DNA of 64,000 nucleotides from Candidatus Omnitrophota bacterium (GTDB taxonomy: Bacteria; Omnitrophota; Gorgyraeia; B26-G9), in contig JAZDHZ010000007.1 of NCBI GenBank assembly GCA_043805415.1, positions 93,786 to 157,785 of the forward strand, given 5' to 3'. The notes under the pieces were generated by a model. The model did not search any database. It was given only the letters and a program-made list of their open reading frames with translations, and was not told where the DNA came from. This document shows, in pieces, positions 12,626 through 64,000 of this stretch (within the stretch, counting starts at the first letter, position 1; each line of letters opens with the position of its first letter). Both the position numbers and the translations under genes were made by a program.

Positions 12626-13009
12626 TTATGACGACAGCTCTAATCCTTCGAGAAAATCATCAACAATTTTTTTATTCTGGTCATTTTTCCACCAGGAAAA
12701 GCTTATCCCTGATCTATATTTATCAGCATCCTGGTAAGTCCATTCCACTTTGCCGAAAACTCTTATTGGGCTAATAGTTTCATTTAGTAAAATATCTATA
12801 CTTAGACGTGTGCCAACAGCCATTGTTTCTTTTGAATAAATTCCTGCGCCGAAAAGAGTAAAATCCCGCAAAAAGCATTCTGTTCCGTTCCAATAGCGAA
12901 ACCATGCCTGCGGATCTAAGGGCCTAACCTGTACAGCTGATTTATCAGCTAATTTTCTTATATTCGCTCTCTGTTCCTTTGCGATAATATCCATATTTTT
13001 TTGCTCCAA
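12626..13009 (-). CDS. Stand-alone PilZ domain protein (putative c-di-GMP receptor)
   Basis: RxxxR (R-ANI-R) followed by a D-x-S/T-x-x-G-type motif (DFTLFGAG). About 55% identical by eye to the PilZ gene at 37540..37899 (shared RPLDPQ.WFR.WN, IRVFGKVEW, SFSWWK). Confidence 0.75.
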   Translation of the reverse strand: MEQKNMDIIAKEQRANIRKLADKSAVQVRPLDPQAWFRYWNGTECFLRDFTLFGAGIYSKETMAVGTRLSIDILLNETISPIRVFGKVEWTYQDADKYRSGISFSWWKNDQNKKIVDDFLEGLELSS

Positions 13010-26447: not shown

Positions 26448-26550
26448 TTGAGCTCCTTCCCTATTTTTGTAATTAGCGGCGATCTTCGTCCTTGCTTTAA
26501 TAAACTTTACGAATATTTTCAGCAATTTTTTTGGATCAAGCCCTGCTTAA

Positions 26551-37473: not shown

Positions 37474-37513
37474 AGCAAAAAAAGCATGAAGCTTATTGCT
37501 AGCTTCATGCTTT
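37474..37513 (-). terminator. Rho-independent terminator ending the giant-ORF/PilZ transcription unit
   Basis: A perfect 13-bp stem (37481-37493 / 37501-37513, core agcatgaagct/agcttcatgct) with a 7-nt loop. On the minus strand it is followed by a T7 run (plus A-run 37477-37483). It lies 27 nt after the PilZ stop. Confidence 0.8.
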
Positions 37514-37539: not shown

Positions 37540-37899
37540 CTAATTTATATTTAATAATTTACCCAGATATTCATTAACCAACTGTTTATCCTGGTCGTCT
37601 TTCCACCAGGAAAAACTAACTCCGGTTCGATACATTCCAGCATCTTCGGTTATCCACTCCACCTTACCGAAAACCCGGATTGTACTAATATCCTTGCTCA
37701 GGCGCAAGTCAATGCTTAACGGCGTGCCAATCGGTATTCTTTCATTGGAAACCACTCCCGCGCCAACCATGCTGATATCGCGCATGGAATATTCTGCGCT
37801 GTTCCAAAACCTGAACCATACCTGAGGGTCAAGCGGGCGAAGACTTATTGAACTGTTCTTAGCTTCCTTGCGTGCGCTATTGCGTCTATCCTTATCCAT
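37540..37899 (-). CDS. Stand-alone PilZ domain protein immediately downstream of the giant ORF
   Basis: RxxxR (R-NSA-R) and DISMVGAG (DxSxxG). AAGGAG RBS ~9 nt upstream of the ATG at 37899. Paralog of 12626..13009. Confidence 0.75.
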   Translation of the reverse strand: MDKDRRNSARKEAKNSSISLRPLDPQVWFRFWNSAEYSMRDISMVGAGVVSNERIPIGTPLSIDLRLSKDISTIRVFGKVEWITEDAGMYRTGVSFSWWKDDQDKQLVNEYLGKLLNIN

Positions 37900-41000: not shown

Positions 41001-44000
41001 CACCCCGGCATCCTGGGCTTTTTCCCATTTTGCTTCATCATATTCTTGAGCGCTATACTTGGGAGTCATCATCAAGCGCAATGCCGGATATAAAATTGCC
41101 AGTGTCCACAAAGGCGCCGCGAACACGATAAAAGAAGCAAAATAAGAACTGGCCACTAAGGTGGCTACGAATGCTAAACCAAAAATAATATACGGCGCCG
41201 CAAAATAATTTCTGTCAAAAAATTGGCCATCTTTAAATAGCGGGACCCCGTGGGCTTTAAGCCAAGCTTGCTTACCGCGCCACATCGGACGGATATAAAG
41301 ATTTTTAATTCCGTTGAATATTCCGGAGAAGAATGCCTGATCCCACATGCTTTGATCGCGCTCTGACTTCCAGGCATCGCGCAAGGATTGAAATTTTGTC
41401 TTGCCTCTAGACTTCCACAAAGTACTGAACACACTGCCAGCACCTTTTAAAATTCCGGATTCAACTACATAGGTAAGAATATAAGGCCCAAATAACCAGC
41501 CAATCAGCGCGAAGAAATAAAGGAACCAGGTGGAAATAAGCATAGTGGTTACCGGAACAATAAGCATTGTAATCGGCAGGAGTATGGCCGCGATCTTTGC
41601 CGGCCAGGTCGCCAGGCTCTGACGGTAATATTTATTAAAATCCTCGTTCATTGTCTTAAGCCGTACTTCTTTTTCTGTGTAAAGAAATACTGGTCTGGCA
41701 TTAACCCCTTCGGCAATTCCCTGAACCACATAATGAGGAATAAGTATATTAAAGAAAATAAAATTCTTCGCGATCCCGGACAGAGTTACCCATATCCCTT
41801 TAGCATAACTGCCTTCGGATGCAACGTGTGCCCAGTAGGCAGGAAGATTAATCGCTTCAGCAAAGACAAAGCCGACAAATACCCAGAAATAAGGGAAGAC
41901 TAAGGCTAGGAACGGATTGACTGGAGCCAAAAGCCCGGTAAGAATAAGCCCGATGGCTGTAAAGGCAACCACGCATAGAATAACCAGTGGTTTTTTCCAA
42001 TAATGCCAAGCAGAAATAACTGTTCCCCATTTTTCATTCCAAGGGATTATATTACTGCTGATAAAACGCTTAAACTGGCGCCTCATAAGAAACTCCACAC
42101 TGCCGGCAGCCCATTTTGCCAGAGGAACTAATAAATCACTGAGAGACGGCGGCATACGCCATTGGAGTTTCATATATTCCACATGTCTGGTAACCATGCC
42201 GAAAAGCATAAATAGCAAAGCGCTGATCAGATCTTCAGATACATAATCATCCTGCAGCCCTTCGTATTTATACATAAAATCTCTTCGATAAACACCCTTA
42301 CCATAATAACCCAGAGTATCCACAGTTTCCTTAATCCGCATTACCGAACTCTGCCATGCCTTTTCCGCGAGTGCCAGGGCGCGTCCGATTGAATTAAGCT
42401 TTTCCACAAAAATCGTAACTGTAGTCAAAACAATCCCTAATTTGGGATTACGGTTGAATTCTGTTAAGACACGGAACATATTCGGCGTTTCTTCATAATT
42501 AATTTCAAGATGCGTATCCATACCCCAAACAATCTCACCGCGCACATAAGGCTGGGCAACAGCAGCGTCACCATATTTGGAAAAACGGATCTGATCGCCC
42601 TCAAAATCACGAATCTGCCCCTTTGGATCTCCTTTAGCAAGCATATGCGTATATTCACCATTATAGCGCTTAAAATCAAGCAGGAGTTTTCTTACCTGCG
42701 CATCACTTATATTCAGACTCTTAATATCCTCTTCGCTCATGGTATCAAAATTAATATTCAGGAATTGATCGATTGCCGGGCCTTTACTTTTTACCAGATT
42801 ATCTGTGGCAAAAAACTGGAACTTCAAGGTTACCAAACGCTGATATTCTTTGGCGGTTTGCAGATAATAAGACAGTTCATCAGCTGTTATCTGTGCTGCC
42901 TGAACAAACAGTTCTTTTTGCCGAGTATCAAGCGCCTTACCTTGCGCATACATCTGGCTTACAGCTGCCAGCTCTTTGGCTAATAAATCCGTGGAATCAG
43001 ATTCAAAACCCAGAATTCTAAATCTATTTAATATAACATCCAGCTGTGCTTTTGTTTGCTGATAACGATTATTTTGATAAAAATGCTCCACATACTCACG
43101 GTAGCGCTGGCGCATATAATGCTGCGACTGGACCCAGCGCCAGGTTGTCGGCATGCGGTAATTTACCCAATCCTCGATCATGTGAATAATTCCGTCAAAT
43201 ACTTCTATTCCCTGAGGCTGGGTTAGTTTTGCGCGAAGCTGCGCGATCTTTACATCTAAAGCTGCTTTTTCTCTAGAGCCCGGCATTGTTGAAAATAATA
43301 CTACTAATTCTTCCAGCGCAGCCTGATCAGCTGCATTGAGTTTGCCTTTTTCTCTGGTCCAATACTTCTGCAATAGAGCTATTTGGTTTTCATATTCATC
43401 TCTAAACCGTTGCGTCAGATGGTGGAATTTTGACGCCTTTTCCCCTTTTTCTATTCGAATAACCTCATCAAGAAAATAATAGTACTTTTCTCCTCCTCCG
43501 GCTAAAATAAAGATACTGAATACCGGCAGTTTTTCAAAGCCTTCAATGCCAGGCTGGAATCTAAAATAACCAGACATAAACCTGAGCAAACGCTGATTAG
43601 CCTCTTGATTTTTCGGCCTAGACAACTTCATCCGGTCTAACTTTGCTTTTACTGCTTCAGCATCAGTCATCTCATTCGCCGTGAACAGATAATCATTTCG
43701 TTCCTGCTCACTGATCTTTGCCTGTTCAAGCAGATGATTAATCGCGTCGTTCCAGACCTCAACCCTTAATTTACCCGAGAAATCTTCGACTTTCAGCTGA
43801 TTATTATCATCAATAAAAATCTTTTCAAGCCGGCCTTTTAAGCGCTCCGAACGCCAGGTAAATATTCTTCCGGTTAAAGGCGCTATCTTCTTGCTAAAAT
43901 GCACAGTCCAGGCGATAAAAAATGCGCCGATTTCCTTGATCGAAAAATAGGTCAAAGGCAAGAACAGCAAAAACGGCAGAACAGTTATAATGGCAAAACT

Positions 44001-47000
44001 AATTCCAAATCCCAGGCCAAGAGAACTGGTAAGCGAGCTGGCCCAAAGCATTCCGTAACTTCCAACAACATAACCCATAAAAATATTATACAGCACTGTG
44101 ACAATCATTGTCTGGCGCCAAAAACGTTTGGCCTTTAATGTCTTTAAACCAGCTGGGCCTTTTTCCGTGCCTTTGGTCCAGAAACGGTCTTCTTGTCCAA
44201 AATTAAAATTAGGATTATATTCAGAATTAAATTTTTCTATTCTATCTTTATATTCAGAAGGTAATAATTTCAAAAATAAATTAAGATAATCCGGCTGAAA
44301 TACTGTTACAATAAACGCAATAATCACAATCACACTCACCAATAAAACACTTGGAAAGAATAACGAAAGCAATCCACCAATAATAATCGTCGCGACAGTT
44401 GACAAAGCTCCGATAGGGCTAGTAAATTTATTCAGCCAATTAGCAACTTTAGTATTTTTAGCAATAGTCTTATTCGCCAATGACACAAACGGAACCATGA
44501 GTTCCCCAAAGAAGGCGATCCAGCCAATTTTATACATTTTAAGATATGTTTCATTATCTTTCAGGGCTTTATTCACTGCTGGTTTAAGCTTTGTATCCAC
44601 CAAATTCTGTATAAGCTCAGACGCTTTTGCCTCAGCGTCTTTGGCTTCTTTTGGTGTTTCTTTTAGCGGCTTTTTGGGAAGCGCGCCTAGTTCTTTGCTC
44701 AGATCAATATCCAGTTCTTTGATCGGGTCCTCATAATAACGGAACAGATCATCCATATCCTCTTGCCCAAAAAGTATGGTTGGATCAGCCAGCAATCTGC
44801 CGGTTACAGTAACTTCTTTCCTTCTATATCGCTCCAGCTTGCTCTGAATCTGATCAATAATAACCCTTCTCCAGAAACCAGCATGCAAACGCATCAGACT
44901 GACAATCTCGCTTTGTTTATCAACCTTATAAAGCGCATATGATTTGCGCATCAGGTAGCGAATTAATGGTGTACGACCAGATAAAGAACTGCCTAATCCA
45001 TAAGGCTGGCGATAAGGCAGCATAAACACTCTTTCCCACAGCTTAAACCGCAAAAGATTCGGAGTTTTCTCACCTTCAAAAGCCTCACTTTTCATAGCAT
45101 TCGCTTTATCCAGACCGATTAATTCAGGTTCCTCTATCTCAAATTCCTGATCATAAGTACCGCCTTGGATTTGCCTTATTCCATAAGGATTTTTTATTAA
45201 AACAGATAAAATTTCAGCCAGGCGTTCTCTGACGATACGATCGTATTCAGCTGTAAATTCTCCACGTGTATCAATATCAGCAAAATATTTATTGAGGTAT
45301 GGACTAAAAGCCGCGTCTATGCATTCTTCAATAATATAATAATCAATTGCAGAAGGGATTCTCTCATTATTTTGCAGTTTTTGGATAAGATCGTTAATTA
45401 CAGCTTTAAATTGTTCAAGGGTTAATAATCCAAGTCCTTCTTTATCATCTAAAAGGTTTTTAACAATTGAAGCAATCGGCGGAGTAAACATCGCGTCAAA
45501 GGAATCTTTTGGTTCCGGCAGTTTATCAGACAAAACTTTATTAAGTTCTTCAATACCCTTATCCGCGGCTAAAACTATCTCCTTCAGCTCAGCTATTACC
45601 TGCAGTCTTGATTCGCCGGAACGGGGCGGGGCGCGCAAAAGATCGCCTGAGCCGAAAATTGTATTAAGTATTTTATAATCAATACCCTGCTCATTTAAGA
45701 ACTTCTTTGCCTGATCAAGAGTTGCAAATCCTTTTTTCTTAAGATCATTAGCCGGCAATTCCTGAGCAAATGCCGTTGCCGCTGATATTGCTATATCTTT
45801 GTCAACTCCGGCAGCAGTCAACATTTTCTCCAGCTCTTTTTCATTTGTTCTGTTCAGCTGCTGCAGCCTTAAATTCGCATCATCATAGAAATCAGGGATT
45901 ATATCAGCAACCACAATATTATCCAGTATACTTGCCTTGGTTTCCGGATCAACTTCTTTTTTATCAAGAAATTCACCCAGAGCAGCTTCATCCATAAAGC
46001 TTTTTTCTTTGCGTCTTTGGTATACTATTTGGCTTGCTATATATTTTGCATTGGTTTCTGCCTGCGATAAAAGTTCTTCTCTTTGAGCTTCACTCAATTT
46101 ATCATCTTGCGCGGACTGTTCTATTTTTTCCTTATCAAAGATGAGGTTTACAATCTCATCTTCGTTCATGAGATTGATATTGTTCTTGCCTTTTTTCTTT
46201 GCCTTGTCTGCCTTTTTCTTCCAGACCAAGCCAGTAATAACATTAGCACCTACTAAATAAACCGCTAAAACAATAGGAATCACCAACCATGGAAAATAAA
46301 AACTAGTAAATGGAAGTCTGACTTTATAACTAAATACCTGTACAAATTTAAACCCTAAACCTTTGGGGCCAATAGTTACTTCCCGCATTTGACTGTCTTT
46401 ATCAAGATATTTTATTTTTACTCCATCGCCCTGAAGATCATCTTTCTTTTTCTGCTCGTTTGCCTGAGCTAATAATTTCTCAAATAATTTTTCGTCTCTA
46501 AACTTCTCGCCTTCTAACTTAATATGAAACAGTTCCAGTCCGCGTTTGCCCATATTGGCAGTCTGACTGATAACATTATTCTGAAATTTATCAAAATATA
46601 GCCACCAAAGCTGACTATTGATCATCTTTTTGCCTTCAAAAGGCACTGCTTTATCAGAAAAATGCTCTTTTTGCGACAATCCCAAACTCTGATGCATGTT
46701 TGCCCCTTTAATCAGCGGGCTGCCATTGCTTAAAAGCAGTGCTTTCTGTCCGCTTAACGAGGACAACCAGGAGGACAACCAGGACGTGCTGGTTTCGCCA
46801 ACTGAATCGGTAAGCACAAATGTATATGCATTCTGGTCATGAATACTATGATGGATTTCATATGGATGCCAGTTTTTGAGCCCGGCATTAAGATTATCGA
46901 TAACTTCCTCAGGATTATGTGAAGTATCATCACGCAATGTTGCCACCAGGTTCTGGCGCTCATCAAAAACATCGATTCTCCATCTGGGATCTTCACCCAG

Positions 47001-50000
47001 CATTTTCTTGGATATCTGGAACTTGATTCTGCCATCAGGATAATACAATGTTCGTACTTGAGCCAGCTTATCTTTGCGCATATCTTCGATATCATAAACC
47101 ATAGTCGCGTCAGGACGTAAGAAAAGATTTTTTGAATTAGCCCGAGGTTTAAATTTAGCTTTAAAGTCTTTAACTATCTGTTCTGTTGATAAACCGCTTT
47201 GCATTAAAGCTGGATTAAAATCAAAGGTATTGCTGCCCTGTGATAATCCCATATTTTTCTCTTTAAGATACTCAAGAAAAGTTACATATGTTTTTTCAAG
47301 CTCCATCAGCTTAATTTTGTCCTCGGGTCCTGACTGATAAGTACGGTCAACATAACCGTTAAATATGATTTCAAGCTCGCCTTTATTATTCTTGATTTCC
47401 ATCCACATCTGAAGCACTTTCGGGATATCCGCTGCATTAGCATCCTTAGGAGCAACAGCAATTGTCGCTGTCCGTTCCCTCATGCCTTTATCAAGCAGTG
47501 TGATAAATGCTTTATCTTTAGCATTGGAAGGATCTAATTGAATCTTCATTTTTCCCTCAAGACCAGCAAAGAAAGCAACCACATCCGCATCATCTTTAAA
47601 CCCGCCTGTCTTATATTTCTCATCAATCATCTTATCAACAATATCTTCCGCAGTACCCTGTTCCGTGCTTGTTATATCAATTAATTCTTTTATTAGATTT
47701 GCTCTGGATGCCGGCAAACGGAACAATACCCACGAATCTTCAAACTTTCGCTCCATCTTATCGGCTTTTGATTCATTTATTCCTAAGGCAGCGTTTTTGT
47801 CTTCAGGAACAAGTGTCTTTATAACCGCATAATCAACAGCGCCTGTTTTTCTGGCAAGATTAATTGCTTTTGAATAGTTAAACAATGTCCAGCCTTGTTC
47901 AGTTAAAAAAGCTGTTGTAACATCAGCAATTCCAAATTTACCATAATCAGTATCAAATCTTGCCCGCAATTGCATTATGCCTTTAAAAACTTTTTTAGCA
48001 TCCCAATATCCCCAGATATGATTTATAACTCTTCCCAATCTATCCTTTGTTTTGCGATAATGCACATCTGCTTTTGAGAAAACCTTATCGCCATCTCTAG
48101 TGAATTCTGATTTCCAATACTCGATTCCTTCATATTGTATACTGCCTTGCTTATCAAGATACCTATCTATGGAGGTCAGATGGTCAGCATACAATGCCTC
48201 TTTTGCTTTAGCTTCATCACTGTATCGTTTAAGCCATTTAGCTTGCTCTTTTTCACTTAGCTTATCCCAGAATTCCTGCTTTTTCTTAGCTTTAAACAAA
48301 GTTTCTTTTGCCGCAGCTTCATCACCTTTAGACTCTTCAAGTAATTTGTTTCTGTCTTCAATACTAATCGTATCCCAAATTGCTTCTTTTTCAATCTCAA
48401 TAAGCATTGACCTGCTGACTTTTTCCTCAAATAATCCGCTGCACATACCAGCAAGCTGATCCTGAGTAAAAGCCTTAAGATTAAACTGATCTTTCTTTTT
48501 ACTAGCTGCTATTATATCTTCAGCTATATATGCCGGTGAGATAAACCTGAGGATTTCTTTTTGATCGCTGTAATCTGATTTCAGAATACCCAGAACAGCT
48601 TTATGGAAATTATCAGCAACAATAGCTTCGCCGCCAGCAGCAGTTATTGCCGCGTTAAAAGCAGCGAGTTTTTCACCACTTAAAGTTTCCCTGTATACAT
48701 TTAAAGCCGCCCTTGCTTTGTCAAAAGTTGTTTCACCTAAACTCTTAAGAATGTCCGCGTTAGAGCGGAAGAAGAAAGACTCTCCTCTATTGGCAATACC
48801 AGCCGCATCCAGATCATCATCTTCAAAATAAGAAAATGACATTATATTTCTTTTGAAAGATTCGTACCTTAACGCCTTTTCCGACGTCAATAAACCATCA
48901 AATAAGATAATAATTCTGCCTTTATTATCTTTTACTTCCTGATAATCAAGGTTTCTCTTTCGTTGGTGCATATGGTAAATAACATTTCCTCTTTTATCTA
49001 TAAATTCCAAGTCTGATTTAGGCACATTTGACCCGGAATTAAACGGCGCGATCTGTGATTCTGTGATTAATGATTCTCCCTGATCAAATTCATGATTGAT
49101 ATTATAAGCAAAGTATTCTAAAAGCACATCAGTCACGGCAATTGTCAGCGCCTTCTTATCAGCTTTCAAGTTTGAAAGCTTCTCAAGTCCCGCGATTATT
49201 TTTTTGGCGTGATATTTCCCCTGTGTATAGTTTTCTAATTTAGCTTCAATCAGCTTAGCATCAGTTCCGCTGTTAATTATAATATCCACGATTTCAGGAG
49301 CAAGCTGATTAAAATCAATTTCTTGTTTTTTGTTTTCCTTGTTATCAAAATAAAAATATGATTGAGAATTAAAAGCAAGACCTAAAGCTCCTAGATTCTC
49401 CTTGTATTCATCAGGCCAGTCATAATTTAATTTAGAAACCCAAACCCAAATAAAATTACCATTAAATTCATATCCTGAATATTTAACCCGGATATTGCCC
49501 TTATTATCCTTTAAACCTTGCCATAACAGTTTACTCTTAGCATCATAGATTAAGGCCTTTACATATCCAGCATCATTAAGGTAATCAGTTTCTTTAAAAA
49601 CCTGCATGATAATATTTCTAAAATCATTATCTTTTAAACCTTTAAGCTTAAGCTTATTTAACTCTTCCGCAATGCTCTGAGCAGTAATAAACGCGTTTTC
49701 ATTGATTAATTTTTCTGTTGCCCGGATAATTGATTCATGTAAAGTTTTAAGTGTTTCAGCGTCAACAGTTAGTTTTAGTTTTTCTAATATTGGACTTAGC
49801 TGCTGCATCTTTAAATTAAGCAAACTACTAACTTTAAACTCATCTAAATTTTTATATTCATTGGTATCAAATTTCTGTAATATTGATAATGCCAGTAATT
49901 TATTTTCGCCTTGTTCCAATAAATTCATATCAGGATTAATCCCATAGTCATAATTCTTATCATATAAATACGTGCTGCCCAAAGTAGCTATATCAAATTT

Positions 50001-53000
50001 CCCCAAACGCTGCATCGCGCTTCTGATTTCAATACGCATCAGTTCTGGGTCTGTAATCCCCAGAGTTTTCCAGGCTTTGGCCATCTTTCCGGCAATAAAA
50101 TCAAATAGTCTAGGGTCATCATCATAATAGAATCTGGTTGATTTTTGCGGCACAAATATTCCATCTATTTTTTTACCGTCAATAGAAACAAGTACGCGGC
50201 CATGAGCATCTTTCACTTCTTGCCAAACAAGCAGAGTTCTCTTATTATCCAGCTCAACAATCATCTCGCCTCTATTGTTGAAATAATCGCTCAACTGTGT
50301 TCCCGCTTTGCCTTTATGCGGCTTCAGTACAGAAACTGAAACCGGCATGGCTGGTTCTTCTTTTGTGGTTTTATCAAGCAAATAAGTTTCACCGGACATG
50401 GCAAACCCAACCCGGCCCAGATCATTCATAACCTTTTCATTTACGCCTAATTCACCGAACTTATCCTGCTGATAAACATAATGGTATTTTGTTACTTTTA
50501 TCGGATAGTATTTATTGTCTTTGCCCTTCTCATAATCATATACTTTAATCGGACGCCCAAAATTATCTTTTATTTCTTCCCAGGTAAGCTGCTGTTTAAG
50601 ACGGACATTCTGTATCGAGATATTTCCCTCTTTACTGAAATAGTCTTCCACTTTAATAAGTTTGCTTGCCTTAACAATCTCGGTAAGCTCCGCTTGTGTG
50701 ATTTTAACTTGATATTTAGTCCCTAATAATTCTGTTAATGCTTTAACCGCTTCAAGAAATTTCTGCTCATCAGATTGTTCCAAAGCAGATACTTTATTTT
50801 GAATATCCCTTAATAACTCTTTATTCTCGGGAGCTAACTTTAATCCCGCGATAATCTTGCCGGCTAGTGTTTCCATGGTATTTAATGTTGAAAAAGCAAG
50901 TACTTCTGTATCCTCTTTAGTATCTTGATCATAAAGAAAAGTAAAACCATACAAAGCAATATTCCGGCGGCCAAGCTCATCCATTATTTCCTGGGATTTA
51001 CCTTCTTGAAGCTTGGGCAGCTTCTTTTCCCAAGCATCAAGAGCTGCTTTAAGTTCAGGATGCGCCTTGCGATAGTTATTAAAGCTTTCATAATCATAAA
51101 AATAATATGTTTTCTGATTCCTGAAAAATTCGCCGTTTTTCACAACTCCATCAAATTTAACCTGTATTTTTCCTGTGCTGTCTATCTGTTCCTCCCAATG
51201 GAGATTATTTAAAACATTTTTCATTTCCACAAGCACTTCGCCGTTATTATCGATATAAACATCGCGCGTCTTTTCCCGGCCCTGGACATCTCGGTAAGTT
51301 TCCTTCCTGTGTTTTTTAATCCGGGAAACCGACATCAGCGCGGTTTGCTCGTTCTTCTCCTGGTCATAAATATAGGTAGCGCCAATAAGCCCTACTCCAA
51401 ATTTTCCGTAGCGGTTCAGGTCGCTGACGAAACTATCATTAAACATATCCTGTCCGGATTTTATATATTCATCAACAACCGCTTTAATATCCGCGTCTTT
51501 GCCTGCTTTTTTCCGATAAGTTTCCAGGGTTTTCTTAAATTTGTCGCTCAGGATATCCCAGCCTAATTTTTCATATTCAATAATCAGCTGCCTGTAAAGT
51601 TCCGGGTTTTCTTTGCTAAATTGCTGAATTTGCTGCAAGCTGTAGAAAAAGCGTGAGGCCTGCGCCTTTTCAAAAACTTTTGTCTGCACATCAAGTTTGC
51701 CCAGGTACCGGATTATTGTTCTTCCCAGATTATCAATAAGGTCCTGACGGGTCATCCGCTGGTTAGCATTGGTCATCTGAACAAGTATGTTCCCCTGGTC
51801 ATCAACATAACTCTCTTTAATTTTTTCCGTATGATCTTTCTCATCAATATAAGCCTTTTTAAATTTCACCAGGAATGAATGTCCGACTAATCCGCCGGTT
51901 TTACCGGTTTTAGCATCGTAAGTATGGGTTTCTCCAATCATCGAAACACCATAAAGCCCGAGAATATCCATGTCCAGAGCAAAACGCGCTTCAATCCCGT
52001 ACTTTTCAGCAAGGTCTTTCTCATATTTGTAGTGGAATGTCGTTACTTTTTCAGGAATAACTCTTCCGGTTTGTTTATTGAATTTTCCGCTGTATTTAAT
52101 TTTTACGCGGCCATTACCGTCAATCACCTGCTCGCTGATTTCTTTCTTTTGCGCGTCTTTATTTAAGACCTGAACATTGCCGTCTTTGGTTAAATATTTG
52201 CCGTTCGCGTCTGCTTTTACCACTGAACCAGCGACCAAATCAAAAGGCACCGCTGCTTTTTCATCAAAGCTGAAAGTCGCGCCAATAAGCGCGATGTCAA
52301 TTTTCCCCTGACGATTTAACTCTGCCAGCAATTTCTCATCTTCTATATTGATATTTAAAGTGCTTAGTTCATCCTTAAGCTTTTTATAAGCATCCGGGAA
52401 TCTCTTCTTAAATTGATTCAACTGGTTAACACTATAAAAAGAGTGGGAAACTTTTTCCCGCACAAACTGCTTTGTCTGAGCGTCAATATGCCCGTAATAA
52501 TCTACTGTCTTTCTTCCCAGATTGTCGACTAATTGCTGCCATACCAGCTTTTGCTTAGGAGCATACATCTGCAGCAATACATTACCTTCATTGTCAAAAT
52601 AACGTCCGTCTTTAAACGGCTGGGCAACAGACCTTCCCACTGGTTCATCACTTACTCTTATTCCCCGGCCATTTTCAAACTTATACAAATAAGTTTCACC
52701 GACCATGGCTACACCCTGCAATCCCAAAGTGTCCATTGTATCGGGATCAACACCAAAAGCATCAAACTGCTTCCGCAGTTCCCTGGACTTGGCATCTTCT
52801 CCGCCGGGATATTCATAGTAAAAGGTGGTTTCTTTTTCCACGTTAAAACTCATACCTGTTTGTGAATCGCGGGCATCAATCTCAAAGGGCTTGTTTTGTC
52901 CATAGGGGATTACCTGCAGCCGGTTTTCTTTACCAGTAGCTTCTCCCATGCTCCCATCATACTTTTTAATCAAGCGGCCGTATTGGTCACGCACTTCCAG

Positions 53001-56000
53001 AAAACGTTTATTTCTTTCGTGGTCAATAACCAGTTTTGTTGACCATTTGGAATGTTTATCCCAGTAAACCGTATTTCCTTTATCTTTATCCGCAAGCGGC
53101 AGCACCTTTGAACTAAGCACAGGCTTATCTTTATCCCAGCGCGGTTTTTCCAATGTGCCGGTATTTACATAGGTTTTACTTTCCTGCTCTCTGCCCCATT
53201 GGTCAAATTTAATTCTGGTAACATATTTTTCATTAAAAGTCATTACCGGCAGCTCATAATCTTTATATACTTCATAAGTTACCGCTTTAGAATCCGGATC
53301 AATAACTTTTTTAATAAGTATCGGGCTCTTTATCTTTACAACTTTTCCTTTGTTTTCTTTGCTAACTCCTGCCGGATCCTCAAGGTTTTCATCATAAGAA
53401 ACTGTTTCAGTTCTTTTCAGTTCTTTTCCTAATTCAGCATCCTTTCTCACTTCACCGGAGTTGTTAATATATACCTTGCTTTCAGACTCAAGATCATACT
53501 CATTGTATTGCATTACAACAATTTTATCTTTTGTGATTACTCGCTCAAGTAAGCCGCGTTTAAAAACCCGCATTTCCCAGTCATTAGTTCTTCCGTTTTC
53601 TTCTTCGCGTATGTATTCCCGATGGAAAGGAAATTTTAAAGTAACTGTAATATCGCGTTTTTCTCCGTTAATTTCAACTGCCTGGGAGCTTTCTTTGGGA
53701 ATATGAAATACCCAGCGGTCGCGCATAATCTTCTGCATTTGGGCAGCGTCGATCTCATCATTAGCCACCATTTGTTTTATTCTATCCAGGTAATCTCCCA
53801 ACGGGTCATAGTATTGCTTTAAACTTAATTTATCTTTTTCTATTGTCAGAGAACCAACTGATTTAAAAAAATCAAAGCAAACAGCGCTTATTTGCTGATC
53901 AGTTAAGAAACCTATTGCCAACTCCTGTTTTTGAGCAATTAATTTTTTAGCCAATAGCTGCGGATCAATAGTTTTTTCTTTCATCGCCTTAGAGACTTCG
54001 ATAAAAGCGCTTATAATTTTTGATACATTCGCGTTTGGCACTGTTTCTGATTTTACACCGGTTATTCTGGCAATGCTCTTGCGAATAGCTTCTCTCTTGC
54101 CGGAGGCTATTTCTAAAAGCCTTCCAGATTTTAAATCAGTAATAATCGCTCCGCCTTCATCTAAAGTTTTGTATTGCTCCGCGGCGTTCGCCTGCTCATT
54201 TTCTCTTTTTTCTCTTGAAACTTCTATTGCCTTAGCCGGGGCGATTAAAGTAACTGTAATTAGAGAATTGTCCTTAGCATTAAGATATTGATATACACCC
54301 TTGAATATATCCACGCTGATAAGCTTATCCGGCCCATATCCAGCAGCCTGCTGTTTTAAGCTAATAACCTGTTCTTTAGCTTGCGCGAGCTTAAGCTGTT
54401 CATCAGAACTCAGCTTTCCTGCTTTGCTTTTAAGTTCAAGCCCTATGATTTCCTGGTTTAATTCTTTAACCTGGTCTTCTAAATATTTCTTTTCAGAAAG
54501 AAAACTAAGCTTTACCCACCCTTTGTAATAAGGATGCGCTGCTTTTTTATCTTCCAGTTCTTTCTTTTCGCTGTCGCTTAGTTCTTCCCCGCGGGATTTT
54601 TTCTTTAAAAGCACAATAATTCTATCCAGGGTTTTTTCATCCGCGCTTGATGCTGTGAATGTCGTACCTTTAGTGTACTGGATGATCATTTCATTGATCT
54701 GCTGTTTTGCTGAACTTAAATTTTTCTCATCTTCTTTTGTCCAGGCAGCGGGATCAATCTTTTTCCTGGACTGGAGTAAATCAATTTTTAGCTTCTGATC
54801 AATAATCGAACTGTCAAACCCTTTTCCGCTGCTGATTCCCAAAGGAACCACGGGAATGCTTTCCGCCCTGCGGATATCAAAAGGATTAACATCGCTCATT
54901 GCCAATAAAATCCATAAAGAGTTCATACTGGCCAGGGAAACTGTATGAAAATTGCTATCCTTATATCTCTGGATCTGACCGTTTACCGCGTCCTTAGGCA
55001 AGGTGCTGTCCGGGAAAAATACCCCTAATTCAGTCCGAACCTCTAAAGGCTGGAGATTTAAGAGCAGGGTTTCTGATTTTTTCCTCTGCTCCTGGGCAAG
55101 TCCTTCCTGAAACATAGCTGTATAGAAATTTGCCATTATCTTGTGCGCTTTAGCTACATGCGCGGTCATTTCCGGGGATACTACTTCCAAGCGGCCGCCG
55201 AGGCCGGGTTTATCTGTATAGCCATAACCGGAAACCTCAACAACTTTACCCTTGTTATAATGCTTTGCTTTTATTACCTTGCGCTTTTCAAGAGAGCTCA
55301 TTATTTTTTCCGCGGAGTCTTGGCCAAAAACATAAGCATTGTCTTTATTACGTAAATTATTCAGGATTTCCGGCCCCAGCACAATAACCGCCAGAGCATT
55401 GACATCTGTCGCGTAAATATCGTCTTTTTCCCAACGCGGCTTATCCTTATCAGTTGAAGTATTCCGCATACCGCGGGAGAAAAATCCCTCTTCTTTGTTG
55501 TACACACTCGGCAGCCAGTTTAATATTTTTTCCGCCGCGTCTTTATAATCATCATTACCGGTTAAATCATAAAGCATCATGAACACGCCGAACGCGTTTA
55601 TGTTTTCTTCTGTTGATTTGCTGTCAAGCTGCGTAGGCCCTTGGCGAATGCCGCCGTCTTCATCCTGTAATTTAATCAGGAACGCGCCAAGCTTTTCCGC
55701 TAATTTCAAAGCATCTTTTCCTTTATTATCCAGTGATTCGCGGAATTCAGAAACTCCTGAAGAAGAAAACCATCCCGAATCTCCTCTTCCTTTAAATATT
55801 TGGTCTGCTTTTCCTTCTCTGCGGAAATCAGCAAGCGCTTTTGTCACCTTTTCTTTTTGGCGATCAAGTACTGCCTGCCATTTTCCCGCGGGAGCATGAC
55901 GCATTAAGTTTTTAATCAGCATCGCGGCTAGCCAGTTACTGCTGCCGGCATTATAACGGAATTCCGCGATCGGTTTTTTTGCTTCTGTAAGCAGCTGAGA

Positions 56001-59000
56001 CGGGTCAATCGCGTTGCAGACTGCTCCGTTAAAACCATCTTTTTCTCCCTCGCGGAACAACCAGGCGTTATTGAGAAAATAATCCATCCATTTATCAGCG
56101 TGGTCGTTTAAGCCGGCTCCAGACAATACCATGGATCTAAGCGCCAGATCATAAGTAAATGCCATGTTAACACTATTAGTGTCCACAGCTGAATCATATA
56201 AATGGCTGATCGGGATCCCAGTCAAAGGATGTTTAAAATTCAATGTCCCGGAAAGCATGTCCCCAGGTAATTTCTGCGCCCAGATTAACGGAGCAACCGA
56301 TTGGTTTTGCTGCTGATACCTTGAAAGCATTGATTCAAGCACAATCCCGCCGTCATAACCTTTTTTAACAATCCGGCCGCCGCCCTTATCCATTAACATC
56401 ATATACTGGTCAAAAAGGCGTACGTCTACTTCAAGTTTTTGCAGCTTGCTCTTGTAGCCTTCGTCTCCTAAAAATACAATGCCTCCGGTTTTCGCGTTTA
56501 GATAATACACGCGCCGTACTGGCTGTTCATTGTCTCCTTCGGATACTACCTCTCCGATTGGAAGTAATTTCAGTTGTTCAAATTCAGTTTGGGTGTATGT
56601 TGTTACCTTATCCATCCACCATTTTTTACTAAACGGATTCGCGCTGCTTTCCATCTCAAAGGCAAATGAACCGGATGATTTAATAAACGCTTGGGTATTT
56701 TTAAGATCAAACCAGGTCATTACCGGCAATCCGAGAAAAGAAATTCCAAAAGCGCGTCTGCGCGGAATTTCCGGCGCATAGTCAGATACCTTGGGTATTT
56801 TTAGTATTCTCAGCAGGGCTTTCGCGTCAAAAGTAATCCCGACAAAGTTAGCATAGTTTGTCAAGGTATTTCCCCAGCCTTCACGAAACGCCATCATATT
56901 CACTCCGGCGCCAAGCGCGTCGTTTCCGGTAATCGCGCCGATTACTGCCATTACATTTACTTCTCCGGTTAAACTAAAATAGCGGCTGGCTAAAATATTC
57001 CGAAAAGCATTTCCTTTTTGATTAAAAGATTCATGATTCAAACGCGCCAGGTTATCCAGGATTCCTAAGCTGAACACGGTAATGGCATAATTCCTTTGCC
57101 CCTGGACATAAGCAACAAAGCTTTTACTGGCTTCATCATCCATAGCCATGGTAAGCCAAAGATTAAGGTCGGATTTTTTATTAGCTTTTTGCTCTTCAAC
57201 ATACTTGCGGAATTGCTCGTCGGTTATAGTTAGGTTTCCGCCTGAGTCTTCCCGAGTAACTTTATCCAGTCCTTTTTCAGTTCTATTCTTTCCCGGCCCT
57301 TTGGAGAAAAACAGATAACTGGAAATAAAAGTTTCCACGGTATTCTTGCTTGGCGGACCCATCATTTTCGCGCCGCTCGGCATTTCCCAGGCAGTAAAAA
57401 GCATATCATATATTAAACGCATGCCTGCTTGCGCGAAAGGTTTGGACAGCGTCGCAATAATGTTGCCGCCGATACCCAATCCGCCCAGGACATTAAGCGG
57501 CAGCATTGCCGTTTCAAATATCATACTGCGTTTTAGTTTCTTAACGGTTTTGTGGGCGTCTCTGACCGCGATCTTGTGCATTAAAGTGCCGATAGAGACA
57601 TTAAGGATTTCTTTATTTATCGCGTTTTTGCCAAACTTGATCACATCACTTTGCGACCAGTCGCCTTTTGCTTCTTTTTCCGGATTGGTTTCCAGAACAA
57701 TTACATCATGGTCAGATCTGGCATTGACTTCCACCAGCTTTGCCTGGCGGTTATAGCTGAGAAAACGCATTCTTCTCTGCTGAAGCTGACCTTGCTCATC
57801 CTTATAAAAATAATAAACATTATCAAAGCCTTTGCTCTTTTGTGCCTGCTGCCATACTTCTAAAAGTTTTTGTTTTTTTTCAGGAGTCAATTTAGATTGT
57901 TCTAATATTTTTTGAAAGTTGGATTCAAATTCAAGAAAACGCGACTCTTTATGTTTTTGCTTTTTGAAGAACTCTGTCCAAGAAGTATCATCACCAAATA
58001 TTTGCGTTATAGCTGCCTTGAGAATAGAGCCATCATTTAGTTCTAACAACGATAATTCCTTGATTAGCTCCTCTTGACCTTTATACTTTTCTCTTATCTG
58101 ATTATTATATGTTTTTATGTAATTCTGATTCAGGTTGTCACTTTGAATATAATCTTTAACCTTAACCGAACTGCCTTCTTCCTGCTCGAAAATTGCCGCG
58201 ATATACGGACTTTGCTTCATCAGCGGATTTTTGGGAACATTGCCGGCAGCATTAAACACTCTGGCTTTTGTACCAAAGGGTTCTACCCCGGATTCATTCA
58301 GCATGTCAATTTTGTTTTTCTGCGCTTCAATATCCAGGTTGCCTAAGATATTACCCACAACTTCAACATCCAATGCCCTTGATAATCCATAGCTTTTTAC
58401 TCCGGCAAGTAATTTATCTGAGGCAAATTTGCCGTAATTCAAACGATAGGCATACTTACCGCCGGCATCCTCGCCTTCAATCCAGATATCCGGATAATTT
58501 CCTGTCTCCTGATACTCCGCGATTTCTTTCGGACGGGTTAATCTTTCTCCGCGTCCGAACTGATCTCTTTCTTCAAACTGTTTTGGGAATTTATAAAAAC
58601 GCAGCAAATGCTGGACATTACTGATATCCACCACAGAATCAAAAACAAGTTCTTTGCCTTGGCTAACCGGAATGTATGGCTGGGCTCCTTTTGCGCCTTT
58701 TTTGCCAATCCATATTTCAATGTTTTTAACATTAGAAATAGTATTATTATCCACATCCTGTTTGATTAATTCATAAAGAGTGCCTTTTTCATCATTGGAA
58801 GGAATTTCTTTATTTGTTCCTTTAACATAAAAATAAATGTTTTTCTGCTCTTTTAATTCTCCCTGCAATATAGGATTTTCCGCGATCGCGAAACGTCCTA
58901 CTTTTTCTACATTAATCAAAAGTTGGACGATTGCCTTGGCAAGGCCGCGTTCGTAATTGCGCTCCGGAGTTAAAGCAGTGGGAGAATATATTTTTCCAGG

Positions 59001-62000
59001 AGTTACTTTATCCATCAGCTCTTGGATTCGACTCGCGAACTTATCATCTGATTTAGCGGATATCACAGGAACAGCCGCTGGAGCTGCTCTTAAATTTTTT
59101 TGCTTTGGCGGTAATGGAGGAGGGCCTATTTTTTTACCGCTGTCTATGCCAGGATTCTCGCGTGCCTGCGGCGTCATTAACGCGGCAACATCTTTGTCAA
59201 TATTTAGTGTTAATTCCTTACCGATTACTATCAGCGATCCTTTGATCTTTGAATCTGGATGCTGATTATTATAAATTTCCCGCAATTTTATCCAAAGACT
59301 GGCACTGCCGAATAATTTCTGGGCCAAGCCTCTAAGTGTATCACCCTTTTCAACCACATGTTTCCACTGTTTTTGCTGGAACTCACCAGACTTGGCTTCA
59401 GGAGTAGAAACAGCTAATTGCTTTGCTTCAGGAGTTGATGTATCTAAAGAAACAACTAATTGCTTTGCTTCGGGAGTCAGTAACGCCGCGATTTCTTCAT
59501 TAATGGTTAAAATAAGGCTTTTTCCTAAAATAATCGTTGTGTCTTTGATGGGATTTTCCGGATGCTGCCGGTTGTAAATTTCTTTAAACTTTATCCGAAG
59601 ATCTTGATTGCCGAAAAATTTTTGGGCAATTTTAGAAAGAGTATCGCCTAACTTTACCTCGTGAATTATTCTCTTGCCAACTATGCCATTTACTTGTACA
59701 TTTAACTCTGCGGACTTTGTTCTTTCTTGGTTTTCTCCCTCTACTCCCCCGGCATCAGTCACTACTACTTCTTTTTTAGATATTTTTGCTTTAGCAAAAG
59801 GCCCCACAGGTGCTTGCTTATCGCTTTTTATCGTGGTTGGAGCGGTTTTGGCCAGGGCCTGAGCACGCTTCTCTTCGCTGTAATTAGCGAGCTGATGAAG
59901 ATTCGCGCCAAAAACTTTTTCCGGGTCATTAGCTTCAATGTTAAGAAAGTCCTGATAATTTTGTTCCTGATTTTTATGATTAATCTTTTTATCTGATTCG
60001 CGCATTTCAAAATGCAGATGGTCATTTATCAGATCCGCGGCATTGCCAGTCTTTCCTACCCTGGCAATCGGCGTATTCCAATTAACTTTATCCCCGATCT
60101 TTACCAGATTTTCACTATTATGCGCGGCTGTCGCATAAAAATACGTCTTACCGCCTTTGCTATTACTTACTTCGTGCCTGACAATAACCAGATTCCCATA
60201 ACCCGTACCTTCTCCGGCAAAAATAACCTCACCAGGCGCTACCGCATAGGCAATCTGGTGACTTTCTTCCCCTGTCTTGCCTGCTATCTGCGGCATATTA
60301 AAGTCAAACCCCTTGTGCTCGCGCGCACCCTTTCCTCTGGGAGCTCCGAACCCGGATACCGGGGTGGTTGTATATTTGCATTTTATCGGCAAACGGAACT
60401 GCTGCAGGAACTGCTCTAAAGGCGTGGCACTGACAATTCCCGCTAATATGTCTATTTCCGGAGTTTTGATATTAAGAGGCTGCTGCTGAGTATTGATTGA
60501 AGCCAACATAAGATCAGGCTTCATTGCCTGAGCAGCTAGGTCAGTATAATGCGCTTTGATTGCTTCCGGCAGGTTTTCTTCAAGTTTTACATTAGCAGTA
60601 TTATACGGCTTTTGCGCGTTTTGGCTATCTGATGCTGCTGCTAAAGTCGGCACAGAAGCAAGCATACTTGCTCCCATAAACGGCATAATCGAAACCTGTA
60701 AAGCTTTGGTAAGTTTTTCCGGATTTGTGGCAATACCCAATAATCTATTTAATCCCACCTTAGCCAGATTAAGCTCAACCAATAAAGCAGTGACTGCTTT
60801 TCTAAAAGCAGGACGCTGCTGAGCAGTTAAAGCCTCAGCAGGAATCTTGGCAACCATATGCTTTATTTCAGCGCTGGAGAAAAAACTGCCGTCATTGGGG
60901 CTGGAATTCTGTACCGCGGTAAGAAAAGTCCGCAGCATTTTGTCTTTTTCCGCCATGCCGTTCAGCAGATTATAAGCTAAATCAGTGGGATTGTGGGAAC
61001 TTGCTACCTCTTGTTTAAACTGATTAATAACTATACCGATATTATCGGAAAAGTCACTAAGTCCCACATTATTCAGCTGAGACTGTATCCCGGAAAAGTT
61101 TTTTAGTTTATGTTTAGCCAAAGACGAATAGTCTGTAGGGGTTTTTGAAATTTTTGATATAAACCGCTTGGAAATAAAAGTAAAACCGCCGGCCAAAGCA
61201 ATAAGCGGCAGCAGAGCAATTAACTTTGCCCCTAATATCGGAACTCCTACGGTAATCAGCGGAGCAATCCATCCGCCGACAAATAATAAGGCTAATCCCA
61301 TAATCGAACCAGTAGTAATCATAACCATTCGGGATTGAAGCGCGGAAGCGCGAGCCATTGACATAAGCGTAAATATTGTTTGCTTAGATTTTTTTGCTTT
61401 GCCGTCAAATCCAACTTCCTGCCTAGCAATTTTCCGCGCGGTAGAATATTGCGCTTTAAAAAACATTATCCCTTGTAAAGAAAATAAGCCGGTAACTAAA
61501 AGTCCAACCGCCTGAAGCAGGCTGCTGCCCTGCATCACTCCGGTACTCATAGCAATTCTAATTGAATCAAATACCTGAACTCCCAGAAGCGGAACAATGC
61601 CTAAAACAATCGCCGCGCTGGCAGCGATTCCGGCAACAAATCCCAGCAAAGGAACCCAGCCTTTAACCGCGATATTATCACTGCTGCGGGCAAATATTTT
61701 TCTGGCGATCAGCATACTCACCGCGATCGCGGACATGCCGGCAATAACCGGCAAACTAAAACTTCCGCTGGCAACAAAACCAAAAGCATACAGACCTAAA
61801 GTAACTAAAGAACCAAAAATTCCACCTTGGAAAAATCTTTTCGCGCTAGTCATCGGCAGCATGGGAGCGGATTTTAAATCTTTACGGCTGGTAAACAGCA
61901 AGAGAGTTGATGAGATTACCCCGACAACCCCCAATACTGCTGATGCCAGCAATACTGTACTTCCAATACTCCCGGTAATAAGCGTTGCTGAACCAATATA

Positions 62001-64000
62001 GGAAAAAAGCGTCATTGCCGCGACAAAAGGAGCAAAAGAAGCAGTTGTGGTAAGTGTTTTTCGCCAAGCAGTTAATCCTACTGTTTTTCCAATATCTTTT
62101 AAAGACTGCCGATGACCAATAGCAATCGCATCAGCCATTTTAGTGATCGTAGAATCAACTTGCGATAATCTTTTTACTTGGGAATTAAGCGCCCAGCCAA
62201 TCATTACTGCCCCGATAGTCACCGCCACCAAAACAACCGGGCCTAAACCAAGAAACAAACTAACCGCGCTGCCAATAACCGGCAAACCAACCGCGCTGCC
62301 GACACCGCCGATACTTAGAGCTTTAAATACCACCCCGATTAAAACAGCAAGCGCGATATTTGCCGAGATCGCGACTGAAGCAGGAATTATCTTTACAGCT
62401 AATAATTTCACGCGTTCTGAAAAAGGAATTCGATTAATTTTCGCGGCTTCTGCTTGAGCTTGATTCATCTCTCCATCTGTCGGAGCTTGCTGAGCAAGCT
62501 GAAAAGCAAGCCCAATAACATTTTTACCCAGATCATTTGCTGTATCTTGTTTCGTCTGTTCAAAAGCAGCCGCTGTTATCCGCTTGATTTCCGCGTAAAT
62601 CATCTGCGGCCTTATAAACTGTTTCTGATATCCGGAACGTGAAGATATTTTCTCTAATCTATGTTTTTTCCATTCAGATTCACTTAAAAACCGCATCCAT
62701 TTCTGATCAACAATTTCTAAAGCGCGGTTTTTAAGAATATCTTCTATAATCGCGAACAAAGCTTTTTCCAGATTGTAATCAGCAGCTTCCAAAGCGCTAT
62801 TTATTGTTTGGGCTTCTATATTACTTAATCCAAAGTCATTGTTTAAAATTTCATTTATGATTAATTCATATTGAATTTCCTGTCCAAGATCAACTCTATC
62901 ACTAATCGCCTGAGCGATTTTTTCCTTGATTGATTCAATAACATTTCGCGGGATGCCCAGCGCCGTTAAATCCCCAGTAACTATGTTTCTTCTAAACATT
63001 ACATGCTCTCTGGCAAATCCTTGACCTTTGCCCGCGCCGCTGGCCTCTTGCCACAAGAACTCACCAAAAGATTTTTGTTCTTTCTCCATGTTCTGTTTAC
63101 TATCATTAATACTTTTTCGAATTGCCGAAACAACCTTCTGGCTCTGATTAGCTGACTTAGGATCATTAGTCATGATAAACGTATGCGGCTTACCAACACT
63201 AACCTTGCTGGTTAAATAAGCTAATTTCTCGGAAATAAGCTCTTTATAATTTAAAAAATCTTCCGGCGACCAGAACCCAAAAAAGAAACCTTCTCTGCCA
63301 TCTCGTCCGCTGCGGCCTCTTAACTGAATATCTGTTTCTTCAGAGGCATCGGCACTTAATGACATAACCACCATTTTATCGCCTTTAAAATCAACTCCGC
63401 GTCCGGATATATTAGTGGATACAATAATTACTTTACTATTTTTAGAAAGCTCTTCGACCTTGTCTTTTAACATTTTTGTATCTGAAGTGGCTTCATGATT
63501 TTTAGAAACAAATTCAATAATAACATTGTCCACAGCATTATCCGCGATCAGCGAATCCAAATCATCCAAAGTCACATTTTCAATTTCATTGCCTTTTGCA
63601 TCAGTAATCTTTCCCTCCTGAGTAATCCGCGCGATATTCCGCCGCGCCATGGCCGGTTTAGCCAAAAGTTTATCCGTAAAACTTGCTACCTGATTTTCAT
63701 CATCACAGCGGACAAGTACAGCTCCGGCTTGTTCAGGAAGTCCCCAATCAGACATTTTCCTTGTCGCGCTTTGATCTGTCTTTAGAACAACTATCGCGTC
63801 AATCGCGTTTCCGATTGACTCTTCTTGATCAGAACTCAGAATAATCTGTTCTTTTCTTTTTGAAACCTTATCTAATCCGCTAAGATCTTTAAACTCTAAT
63901 CCATAATTATCAGCTGTCTTCTGTCCAATGGTAGCAGAAGCAGCGCTAATTCCGGAAACAAGCCCCAAATTATCACTCAAAATTACCGGCAAAATCATCG
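38025..64000 (-). CDS. Giant multi-domain membrane protein, 5'-partial (at least 8,657 codons in the window; N-terminus lies beyond the window end)
   Basis: A single open frame from the window edge to TAA (plus 38025-38027). The frame is open at 63998-64000 and the first recognisable domain is only the second half of a SecA-type motor, so the listed Met (MILPV) is not the true start. Domains are listed as separate sub-features. Confidence 0.85.
   Translation of the reverse strand, partial: [8657 protein letters not shown]
40880..42050 (-). other. Giant ORF: hydrophobic block following the GT48-like core
   Basis: [146 protein letters not shown]. The arrangement (TM block / GT core / TM block) mirrors Fks1 topology. 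Confidence 0.55.
42050..43640 (-). other. Giant ORF domain: divergent GT48 (Fks1 / callose synthase, 1,3-beta-glucan synthase)-like cytoplasmic core
   Basis: Collinear motif matches to yeast Fks1 as I recall it. P6795[12 protein letters not shown] vs [35 protein letters not shown] vs [33 protein letters not shown] vs RKFKFLVSM. KGDPKGQ...R7153[28 protein letters not shown] vs [47 protein letters not shown] vs LHYGHPDF. VS-E7255[20 protein letters not shown] vs [23 protein letters not shown]. The Fks1 QCGKGRD motif is not conserved (KLQWRMP). Confidence 0.6.
43895..44535 (-). other. Giant ORF: hydrophobic block preceding the GT48-like core
   Basis: [101 protein letters not shown]. Confidence 0.55.
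46900..53650 (-). other. Giant ORF: ~2,200-aa region of degenerate YD/RHS-like repeat modules
   Basis: A recurrent module: Y.D..GN.LV.M......L.W(Q/E)(E/Q)(L/I/V).D..GR.I..Y.G......F......F.Y ... G..(A/M).(G/S)(E/A)TY(L/I)(Y/F)D. Examples: [113 protein letters not shown]. Confidence 0.5.
54875..56175 (-). other. Giant ORF domain: alpha/alpha-toroid-like (glycoside-hydrolase- or prenyltransferase-repeat-like) domain, paralogous to 16279..~17350
   Basis: [12 protein letters not shown]..., [12 protein letters not shown] (QW-motif-like), [49 protein letters not shown]. It is collinear with the C-terminal domain of the 650-aa PilZ protein. Confidence 0.55.
59199..59663 (-). other. Giant ORF domains: two LysM-like peptidoglycan-binding repeats joined by a TPEAKQL micro-repeat linker
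   Basis: LysM1 (59502-59663): [19 protein letters not shown]...[26 protein letters not shown]. LysM2 (59199-59366): [19 protein letters not shown]...[26 protein letters not shown]. Linker: [29 protein letters not shown]. Confidence 0.7.
59990..60370 (-). other. Giant ORF domain: M23 (LytM-type) metallopeptidase
   Basis: HxxxD motif H-KGF-D (His at aa 1228, nt 60315-60317). '[10 protein letters not shown]' core. HxH motif DHLHFEM (nt ~60003-60023). Confidence 0.8.
61150..62420 (-). other. Giant ORF: first hydrophobic block (roughly a dozen predicted TM segments, not formally computed)
   Basis: aa ~527-950 are dominated by long G/A/V/L/I runs, e.g. [78 protein letters not shown]. Confidence 0.6.
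63204..63998 (-). other. Giant ORF domain: divergent SecA-type motor, NBD2/helicase-C-like half
   Basis: aa 195-204 [10 protein letters not shown] vs the SecA motif [10 protein letters not shown]. aa 225-237 [13 protein letters not shown] vs SecA [13 protein letters not shown]. The following [10 protein letters not shown] matches SecA SRFYLSLED. Confidence 0.7.

Follow-up and report, generated by a model that had tools for sequence, protein, structure and literature searches.

The DNA analysed here, a 64,000-nucleotide stretch of contig JAZDHZ010000007.1 from a Candidatus Omnitrophota bacterium (hereafter the window), ends inside a giant minus-strand gene. Its product, a membrane protein expected to have ~9,200 residues, very probably carries a divergent SecA-type ATPase module in its N-terminal part, and the C-terminal half of this module lies in the window. 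The window holds the tail of nucleotide-binding domain 1 (NBD1), the entire NBD2 with motifs V and VI intact, and the helical region that follows. This SecA-homologous ATPase forms a single polypeptide with a polytopic membrane block and thousands of further residues, peptidoglycan-directed domains among them. By analogy with SecA, the giant protein may be exported by its own motor, a plausible but tentative reading.

Both the fusion and the hypothesis of self-export have already been published for giant genes of Omnitrophota (West-Roberts et al. 2023, bioRxiv 10.1101/2023.11.21.568195), and the present locus confirms rather than discovers them. Its additions are modest: an N-terminal motor in a compact protein of ~9 thousand amino acids (kaa), a cassette-like conservation of motor and membrane block, and a possible two-helix finger. 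As to how bacteria insert and export polypeptides of 10,000 to more than 100,000 residues, the chief lead so far is that a translocation motor is fused in cis, and a short version of ~9 kaa would lend itself best to cloning and testing.

The motor domains at the window edge

The minus-strand frame from position 63998 to its stop codon is uninterrupted over 8,657 codons and open at the edge of the window. Residue numbers (aa) count from position 63998, and the motor part of the frame contains the following features.

38025..64000, minus strand: giant open reading frame (ORF), 5' end truncated by the window edge, stop codon at 38025-38027
63927..63998, minus strand: end of SecA NBD1 (aa 1-24) with the motif III-like 'SAASAT', from the alignment to relatives
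63264..63863, minus strand: RecA-like domain 2, the equivalent of SecA NBD2/IRA2 (aa ~46-245)
63387..63416, minus strand: helicase motif V (aa 195-204), pattern TNxxGRGxD
63288..63326, minus strand: helicase motif VI with its arginines (aa 225-237), pattern QLRGRxGR
62496..63161, minus strand: helical region after NBD2 (aa 280-501), from AlphaFold2 secondary structure

An earlier, sequence-only reading had matched aa 195-204 (nt 63416-63387) and aa 225-237 (nt 63326-63288) to the two most conserved NBD2 motifs of SecA, and both motifs are present at exactly these positions. Across eight relatives, T195, G199, R200, G201, V202, D203 and F204 of motif V are invariant, as are Q225, G228, R229, R232, G234 and G237 of motif VI. 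Based on Pfam, aa 175-234 match Helicase_C (E-value 2.5e-7, 31.3 bits against a cutoff of 23.5), with P-loop_SecA below threshold at aa 215-259 (E 3.3e-4). The top NCBIfam matches are SecA and SecA2 models, including PRK09200 (E 4.2e-8, aa 189-489 against model positions 477-766 of 789), and the DbpA and RecQ helicases rank after them. Because Helicase_C lies above its Pfam cutoff and the best NCBIfam matches are SecA models, the motif match is real and not due to chance, and the comparison with profile libraries bears out the earlier reading. Domain 2 alone proves only a superfamily 2 (SF2) ATPase.

The first 24 residues pair with 'MTLPEILNPNLGLVS..SAAS' of the relatives P0001, P0002 and L004-L010, and the segment corresponds to the 'GMTGTA' motif III region of the SecA-like P0004. 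NBD1 and the preprotein cross-linking domain (PPXD) had been expected to lie beyond position 64000. In orthologues both are indeed seen upstream, with the correction that the tail of NBD1 (aa 1-24) is already inside the window.

The expected continuation of the gene beyond the edge is borne out by the relatives as well: the alignments with the relatives reach the first codon of the window's ORF, whose first residue is already inside the homology. In the orthologue L004, which is colinear with the window protein over ~4,000 residues with identity dropping from 60% to 50% (blastp), the frame before the equivalent of the edge is free of stops over more than 560 codons, and the first ATG comes 544 codons before it (563 codons if counted from the first possible start codon, TTG). 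The ORFs of L005, L006 and L009 start 545-621 codons upstream of the same point. Since four relatives start 544-621 residues further upstream, ~1.6-1.9 kb of the giant gene is probably missing beyond the edge, and the full protein is expected to have roughly 9,200 residues.

It is extremely unlikely that the ATG at 63998 is the real start, which would leave a protein without NBD1 and would make the motifs those of an orphan half-helicase. This ATG is the first codon in the ORF listing, which is what speaks for such a start, but the methionine is internal because the alignments with the relatives cover the very first residue: in all eight it pairs with an internal methionine, that of 'M(T/I)LPE(I/L)L'. 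The frame of L004, at 73% identity, stays open upstream over the distance given above, and its codon preceding the methionine is TCC (Ser), which agrees with the partial codon '-CG' seen in the window. A lone RecA domain 2, moreover, cannot bind ATP productively, as is established for SF2 ATPases. A start at 63998 was rejected on the upstream frames of the relatives, the alignment and the L004 codon comparison.

Relationship to SecA

A word-index protein search returned no homologue, either with the single query or with an eight-sequence alignment; such negatives are unreliable for this family, for which exhaustive phmmer and a degenerate-pattern scan found relatives at 43-73% identity. Exhaustive phmmer gave only eight matches, the top two being protein fragments at 43% identity that bear SecA_DEAD/PP_bind domains, and the pattern scan, which covered contigs of one genome per species, gave seven loci. 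The closest locus, L004 (JAHITE010000094.1), comes from a Candidatus Omnitrophota metagenome-assembled genome (MAG) and is 73% identical; L005 is 54% identical. MAGs with the label Candidatus Omnitrophota hold the best relatives (73%, 54% and 40-41% identity), and others come from MAGs labelled PVC group, Planctomycetia and Clostridia. A protein-level scan of metagenome contigs found no relatives.

The window sequence taken alone is ambiguous between SecA and a helicase, and phmmer against PDB sequences even places DDX23 and eIF4A slightly ahead of SecA (1e-4 vs 1e-3). The SecA-type assignment is made because of the upstream domains of the relatives, the profile comparison with the PDB and the Foldseek result. 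In the six relatives that extend upstream, SecA_DEAD and/or SecA_PP_bind above threshold lies directly before the equivalent of the window edge. Both domains are above the Pfam cutoff in five of the five loci scanned (L004, L005, L006, L007 and L010; SecA_DEAD E 5e-15 to 2e-8, SecA_PP_bind E 3e-10 to 6e-5), and P0002 has SecA_DEAD above the cutoff with SecA_PP_bind just under it (19.7 vs 23.5 bits). The relatives also conserve Walker A 'MPTSAGKT' and Walker B 'FDEGD', and the NCBIfam SecA/SecA2 models match the orthologue modules with E-values of 1e-15 to 4e-25.

An eight-sequence profile of the window part, searched against the PDB, found T. maritima SecA as the best match (E 6e-6), with an alignment to residues 521-814 that runs from NBD2 through residue 814. 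When the AlphaFold2 model of aa 1-520 (mean predicted local distance difference test score, pLDDT, of 71.8, from a shallow alignment) was compared with the PDB by Foldseek, the top 25 matches were all SecA or SecA2 (E 5.5e-10 to 3.3e-6, alignments of ~480-550 columns), whereas the first non-SecA match, a helicase, came at E 7e-4. A generic DEAD-box or RecQ helicase was rejected, as the relatives carry SecA_PP_bind in domain 1 and Foldseek favours SecA.

In the AlphaFold2 model, the region after NBD2 consists of a long helix (aa 280-316), a helical bundle (aa 328-405) and a helix-loop-helix (aa 410-501) with the tip 'SRSGYQKQF', which the profile aligned to the T. maritima SecA finger 'LRIIDDHWRRYL...LRSYGQKDP'. 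When the helical region was aligned by itself to T. maritima SecA 613-814 in a targeted hhalign comparison, the signal was modest (P 5e-4, 66 columns on the finger). As modelled, the arrangement suggests a resemblance to the scaffold, wing and two-helix finger of SecA, and a two-helix-finger-like element seems to be retained, which is a small addition to the known picture.

Canonical SecA scores are not reached: the window part has 26.5-31.7 bits and the complete orthologue modules have 54-88 bits, against cutoffs of 800-862. Nor is the module a soluble, free-standing protein that ends in a C-terminal linker or zinc-binding tail: its chain goes on for over 8,000 residues more. No housekeeping secA is present within the 64-kb window.

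Among described systems, the closest are the giant proteins of Omnitrophota, most of which carry divergent SecA DEAD and preprotein-binding domains beside membrane regions; these SecA domains form a separate long-branched clade, ordinary SecA and SecYEG coexist with them in the same complete genomes, and pilZ follows most of the giant genes (bioRxiv 10.1101/2023.11.21.568195). A 20-protein PF07517 architecture cluster has also been reported among long Omnitrophota proteins (bioRxiv 10.64898/2026.06.07.730766). Our locus shares with the former proteins the very long ORF, the many membrane helices, the divergent SecA_DEAD and SecA_PP_bind by a membrane block, the peptidase, glycosyl hydrolase and glycosyl transferase domains (the GH76- and GT2-like ones being weak here), the pilZ gene immediately downstream and, for the closest orthologue, the origin in an Omnitrophota MAG. 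It differs in size, since the two papers focus on proteins of at least 10-30 kaa, with a class of at least 30 kaa emphasised in the former, and the protein here has ~9,200 residues. It may also differ in the helical region: scaffold and wing domains were said to be lacking in the giant-protein SecA (bioRxiv 10.1101/2023.11.21.568195), whereas a scaffold- and finger-like region is suggested, not proven, here.

With housekeeping SecA (TIGR00963; PDB 3JUX, 3DIN, 1M6N, 2FSF), the module has in common the order of NBD1 with inserted PPXD, NBD2 and helical region, the conserved Walker A/B and motifs V/VI, and the best structural match. Its identity to SecA is only ~15%, however, and it is fused on both sides, with a hydrophobic segment at the N-terminus before it and about ten membrane helices after it; the C-terminal linker or zinc-binding tail is absent, the membrane helices starting directly at aa 530. 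In SecA2 systems (TIGR03714, TIGR04221; PDB 4UAQ, 6SXH) the ATPase is a polypeptide of its own, and SecY2 and Asp partners are often encoded alongside it. The present system differs in having its presumed substrate fused in cis and in lacking SecY2 or Asp genes in the window. The DEAD-box and RecQ SF2 helicases (Pfam DEAD and Helicase_C) resemble the module in their RecA-like domain 2, motifs V and VI included, and score about as well as SecA for the window part. In contrast to the module, they do not have the SecA cross-linking domain that is inserted in domain 1 of the relatives, they trail SecA by more than 100-fold in Foldseek, and they do not share its membrane-protein context; the module, for its part, shows no RNA- or DNA-binding accessory domain.

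Membrane block, passenger and proposed function

Downstream of the motor, the giant protein contains the following features, the last lines giving the segment found at the start of relatives.

61173..62411, minus strand: ~10-11 hydrophobic helices directly after the motor (aa 530-942), from a hydropathy scan
60519..61172, minus strand: conserved soluble region (aa 943-1160), end of the cassette common to relatives (blastp)
59979..60320, minus strand: Peptidase_M23 (aa 1227-1340), Pfam E 1.1e-16, 61.2 bits
59592..59663, minus strand: LysM-like segment (aa 1446-1469), Pfam E 1.1e-5, partial model match
55431..55709, minus strand: Glyco_hydro_76-like segment (aa 2764-2856), weak, E 1.6e-4, 21.8 bits, below the cutoff of 25.9
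40920..46316, minus strand: later membrane-helix clusters (aa 5895-5923, 6546-6680 and 7338-7693), from the hydropathy scan
L004 1786-1900; L005 8366-8470; L006 8138-8420: N-terminal hydrophobic segment of relatives
L009 3701-3800; L010 5813-5900: N-terminal hydrophobic segment of relatives

The membrane block is conserved in all eight relatives, and together with the next 220 residues (60519-62411, minus strand) it has a mean column identity of 54% over them. It has no Pfam match at E<=1, an eight-sequence profile found nothing meaningful among PDB sequences, and neither the Pfam nor the PDB sequence searches gave any likeness to SecY; the AlphaFold2 model of the block is unusable (pLDDT 44.5). 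The block and the 220 residues after it are an uncharacterised membrane domain that is always attached to the motor.

Every relative that reaches far enough shares motor and membrane block to about aa 1160, and conservation with L005, L006, L007, L009 and L010 ends near this residue (blastp). Past it, L005, L006 and L010 have no similarity in the sequence fetched, L007 has patchy similarity at 26-32% identity, and only L004 is colinear. Because similarity beyond aa 1160 is lost or patchy in distant relatives, the cassette gives the impression of a unit that precedes varying passengers. It need not stand first in the protein: at least 1,774 residues come before it in L007 and at least 1,396 in L010. 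These two occurrences, in L007 (WJOT01000045.1, a 'Clostridia bacterium' MAG, 41% identity) and L010 (CAZMYR010000001.1, a 'Planctomycetia' MAG, 37% identity), are in MAGs assigned outside Omnitrophota and could be due to horizontal spread, a wider distribution or mis-binning.

The hydrophobic helices of the giant protein form four clusters in total. A weak Glyco_trans_2_3 match, below its cutoff (nt 41880-42293, E 9e-4), falls within the cluster at aa 7338-7693 (40920-42293, minus strand), a layout reminiscent of membrane-embedded processive GT2 synthases.

In every relative with a visible start, a single conserved hydrophobic segment comes first, with a K/R-rich flank followed by 'FRxIxAxIIQAFLxxDIxxAAGGDLRWL', and ~1,050 soluble residues, the ATPase included, come after it. 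From its sequence, this segment looks like a signal peptide or signal anchor.

If the module is a SecA-type motor, self-export could proceed as follows. Where membrane proteins have large hydrophilic domains, SecA is needed to translocate these. The motor would face the cytoplasm, with the membrane block as its tether, and its N-terminal position would let it be synthesised and anchored ahead of the passenger. ATP-driven, SecA-like movements of clamp and finger would then push the protein's own long hydrophilic stretches across the membrane, for example aa 943-5894 with the peptidoglycan-directed M23 and LysM domains, through a channel that could be either SecYEG or the adjacent membrane block.

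Several results weigh against a SecA-type motor that exports its own chain. With 20-90 bits where the equivalog cutoffs stand at 725-930, the module, as judged from its sequence, is homologous to SecA yet not a canonical SecA. Pfam SecA_SW, at aa 336-440, reaches only E 0.034 (15 bits against a cutoff of 26.7), and it stays sub-threshold in the family (three of eight members, E >= 0.027). An hmmsearch with the helical region alone against the PDB returned no sequence at E<=10. The signal-peptide-like start of the relatives, read literally, would put the ATPase outside the cell, a paradox for a cytoplasmic motor, and K/R-rich loops suggest that the chain is placed back in the cytoplasm after the membrane block. 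In addition, the window's own upstream DNA was not found, the exact 28-mer of the window end being absent from the genome and metagenome contigs searched.

Two other functions were weighed against self-export. The motor could instead be a SecA2-like, membrane-tethered accessory translocase for other proteins, such as the neighbouring glycosidases or pilin-like proteins. We regard this as unlikely, given that the motor is fused to the membrane block and that the pair is kept beside differing passengers, which is more economically explained by service to the attached chain; nor are there dedicated SecY2 or Asp-type partner genes within the window. The extreme divergence of the module, with scores far under the family cutoffs and the long branches reported in the literature, could also indicate a degenerate or repurposed SF2 ATPase that translocates nothing and acts as an anchor, assembly scaffold, regulator or nucleic-acid helicase. 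It is consistent with such a role that generic helicases nearly equal SecA in score for the window part alone and that Pfam does not detect the wing/scaffold domain. This is nevertheless quite improbable, since Walker A, Walker B and motifs V and VI are invariant across relatives at 35-73% identity, the cross-linking domain is kept above its cutoff, a finger-like helix-loop-helix with a Tyr near the tip is kept, and Foldseek prefers SecA by more than two orders of magnitude in E-value.

More speculative, and in our estimate very improbable, is the idea that the N-terminal cassette is a self-contained 'autotranslocon' that works without SecYEG, the fused membrane block itself being the protein-conducting channel. 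Its parts would be the hydrophobic leader, the finger-retaining SecA-like motor, the block of about ten helices and the conserved 220-residue domain. The cassette recurs before different passengers in MAGs of Omnitrophota and the PVC group and in those labelled Planctomycetia and Clostridia. If true, the autotranslocon would be a novel, portable means of exporting very long polypeptides.

Neighbouring genes

Two features follow the giant gene directly.

37540..37899, minus strand: pilZ gene, 119 residues, Pfam PilZ E 8.9e-10, 125 nt after the stop codon of the giant gene
37481..37513, minus strand: terminator-like hairpin with a 13-bp stem after pilZ, from a consensus scan only

The placement of pilZ 125 nt downstream and of the terminator-like hairpin after it suggests that the giant gene and pilZ are one transcription unit. 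Further PilZ domains are found at 16279-18231 (N-terminus of a 650-residue protein) and at 12626-13009. An exact-product look-up for one neighbouring gene returned no record.

An AbiEii nucleotidyltransferase toxin gene (35160-36059, minus strand, E 3e-28) is overlapped upstream by a 129-residue ORF (36043-36432, minus strand) that could be its antitoxin, and the pair (35160-36432) lies between the giant gene and the gene for a 1,191-residue HEAT-repeat protein. Large unannotated proteins are also among the neighbours. Two GH2_C/GH72-like glycosidase paralogues (20150-21439 and 23063-24955, minus strand) flank small unannotated ORFs and adjoin an MFS_2 sugar transporter (25008-26525, minus strand), a stretch that fits the carbohydrate-import genes reported near giant genes. 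Of the type II/IV secretion-like gene cluster described as preceding giant genes of the published class, the window, which ends inside the giant gene on that side, has only a pseudopilin-like N_methyl protein, encoded far downstream of the giant gene. Four tandem radical-SAM genes (722-5125, minus strand; ~335-346 residues each, three of the four with SPASM) adjoin the gene for a 1,351-residue ABC_tran fusion protein (5129-9184) and an ABC-2 permease gene (9209-9988).

All long ORFs of the window (1-64000) are on the minus strand, at a GC content of 35-43%. The GC skew is negative in 16 of 16 bins of 4 kb (-0.10 to -0.28), and the co-orientation and the skew together suggest a long stretch of one replichore.

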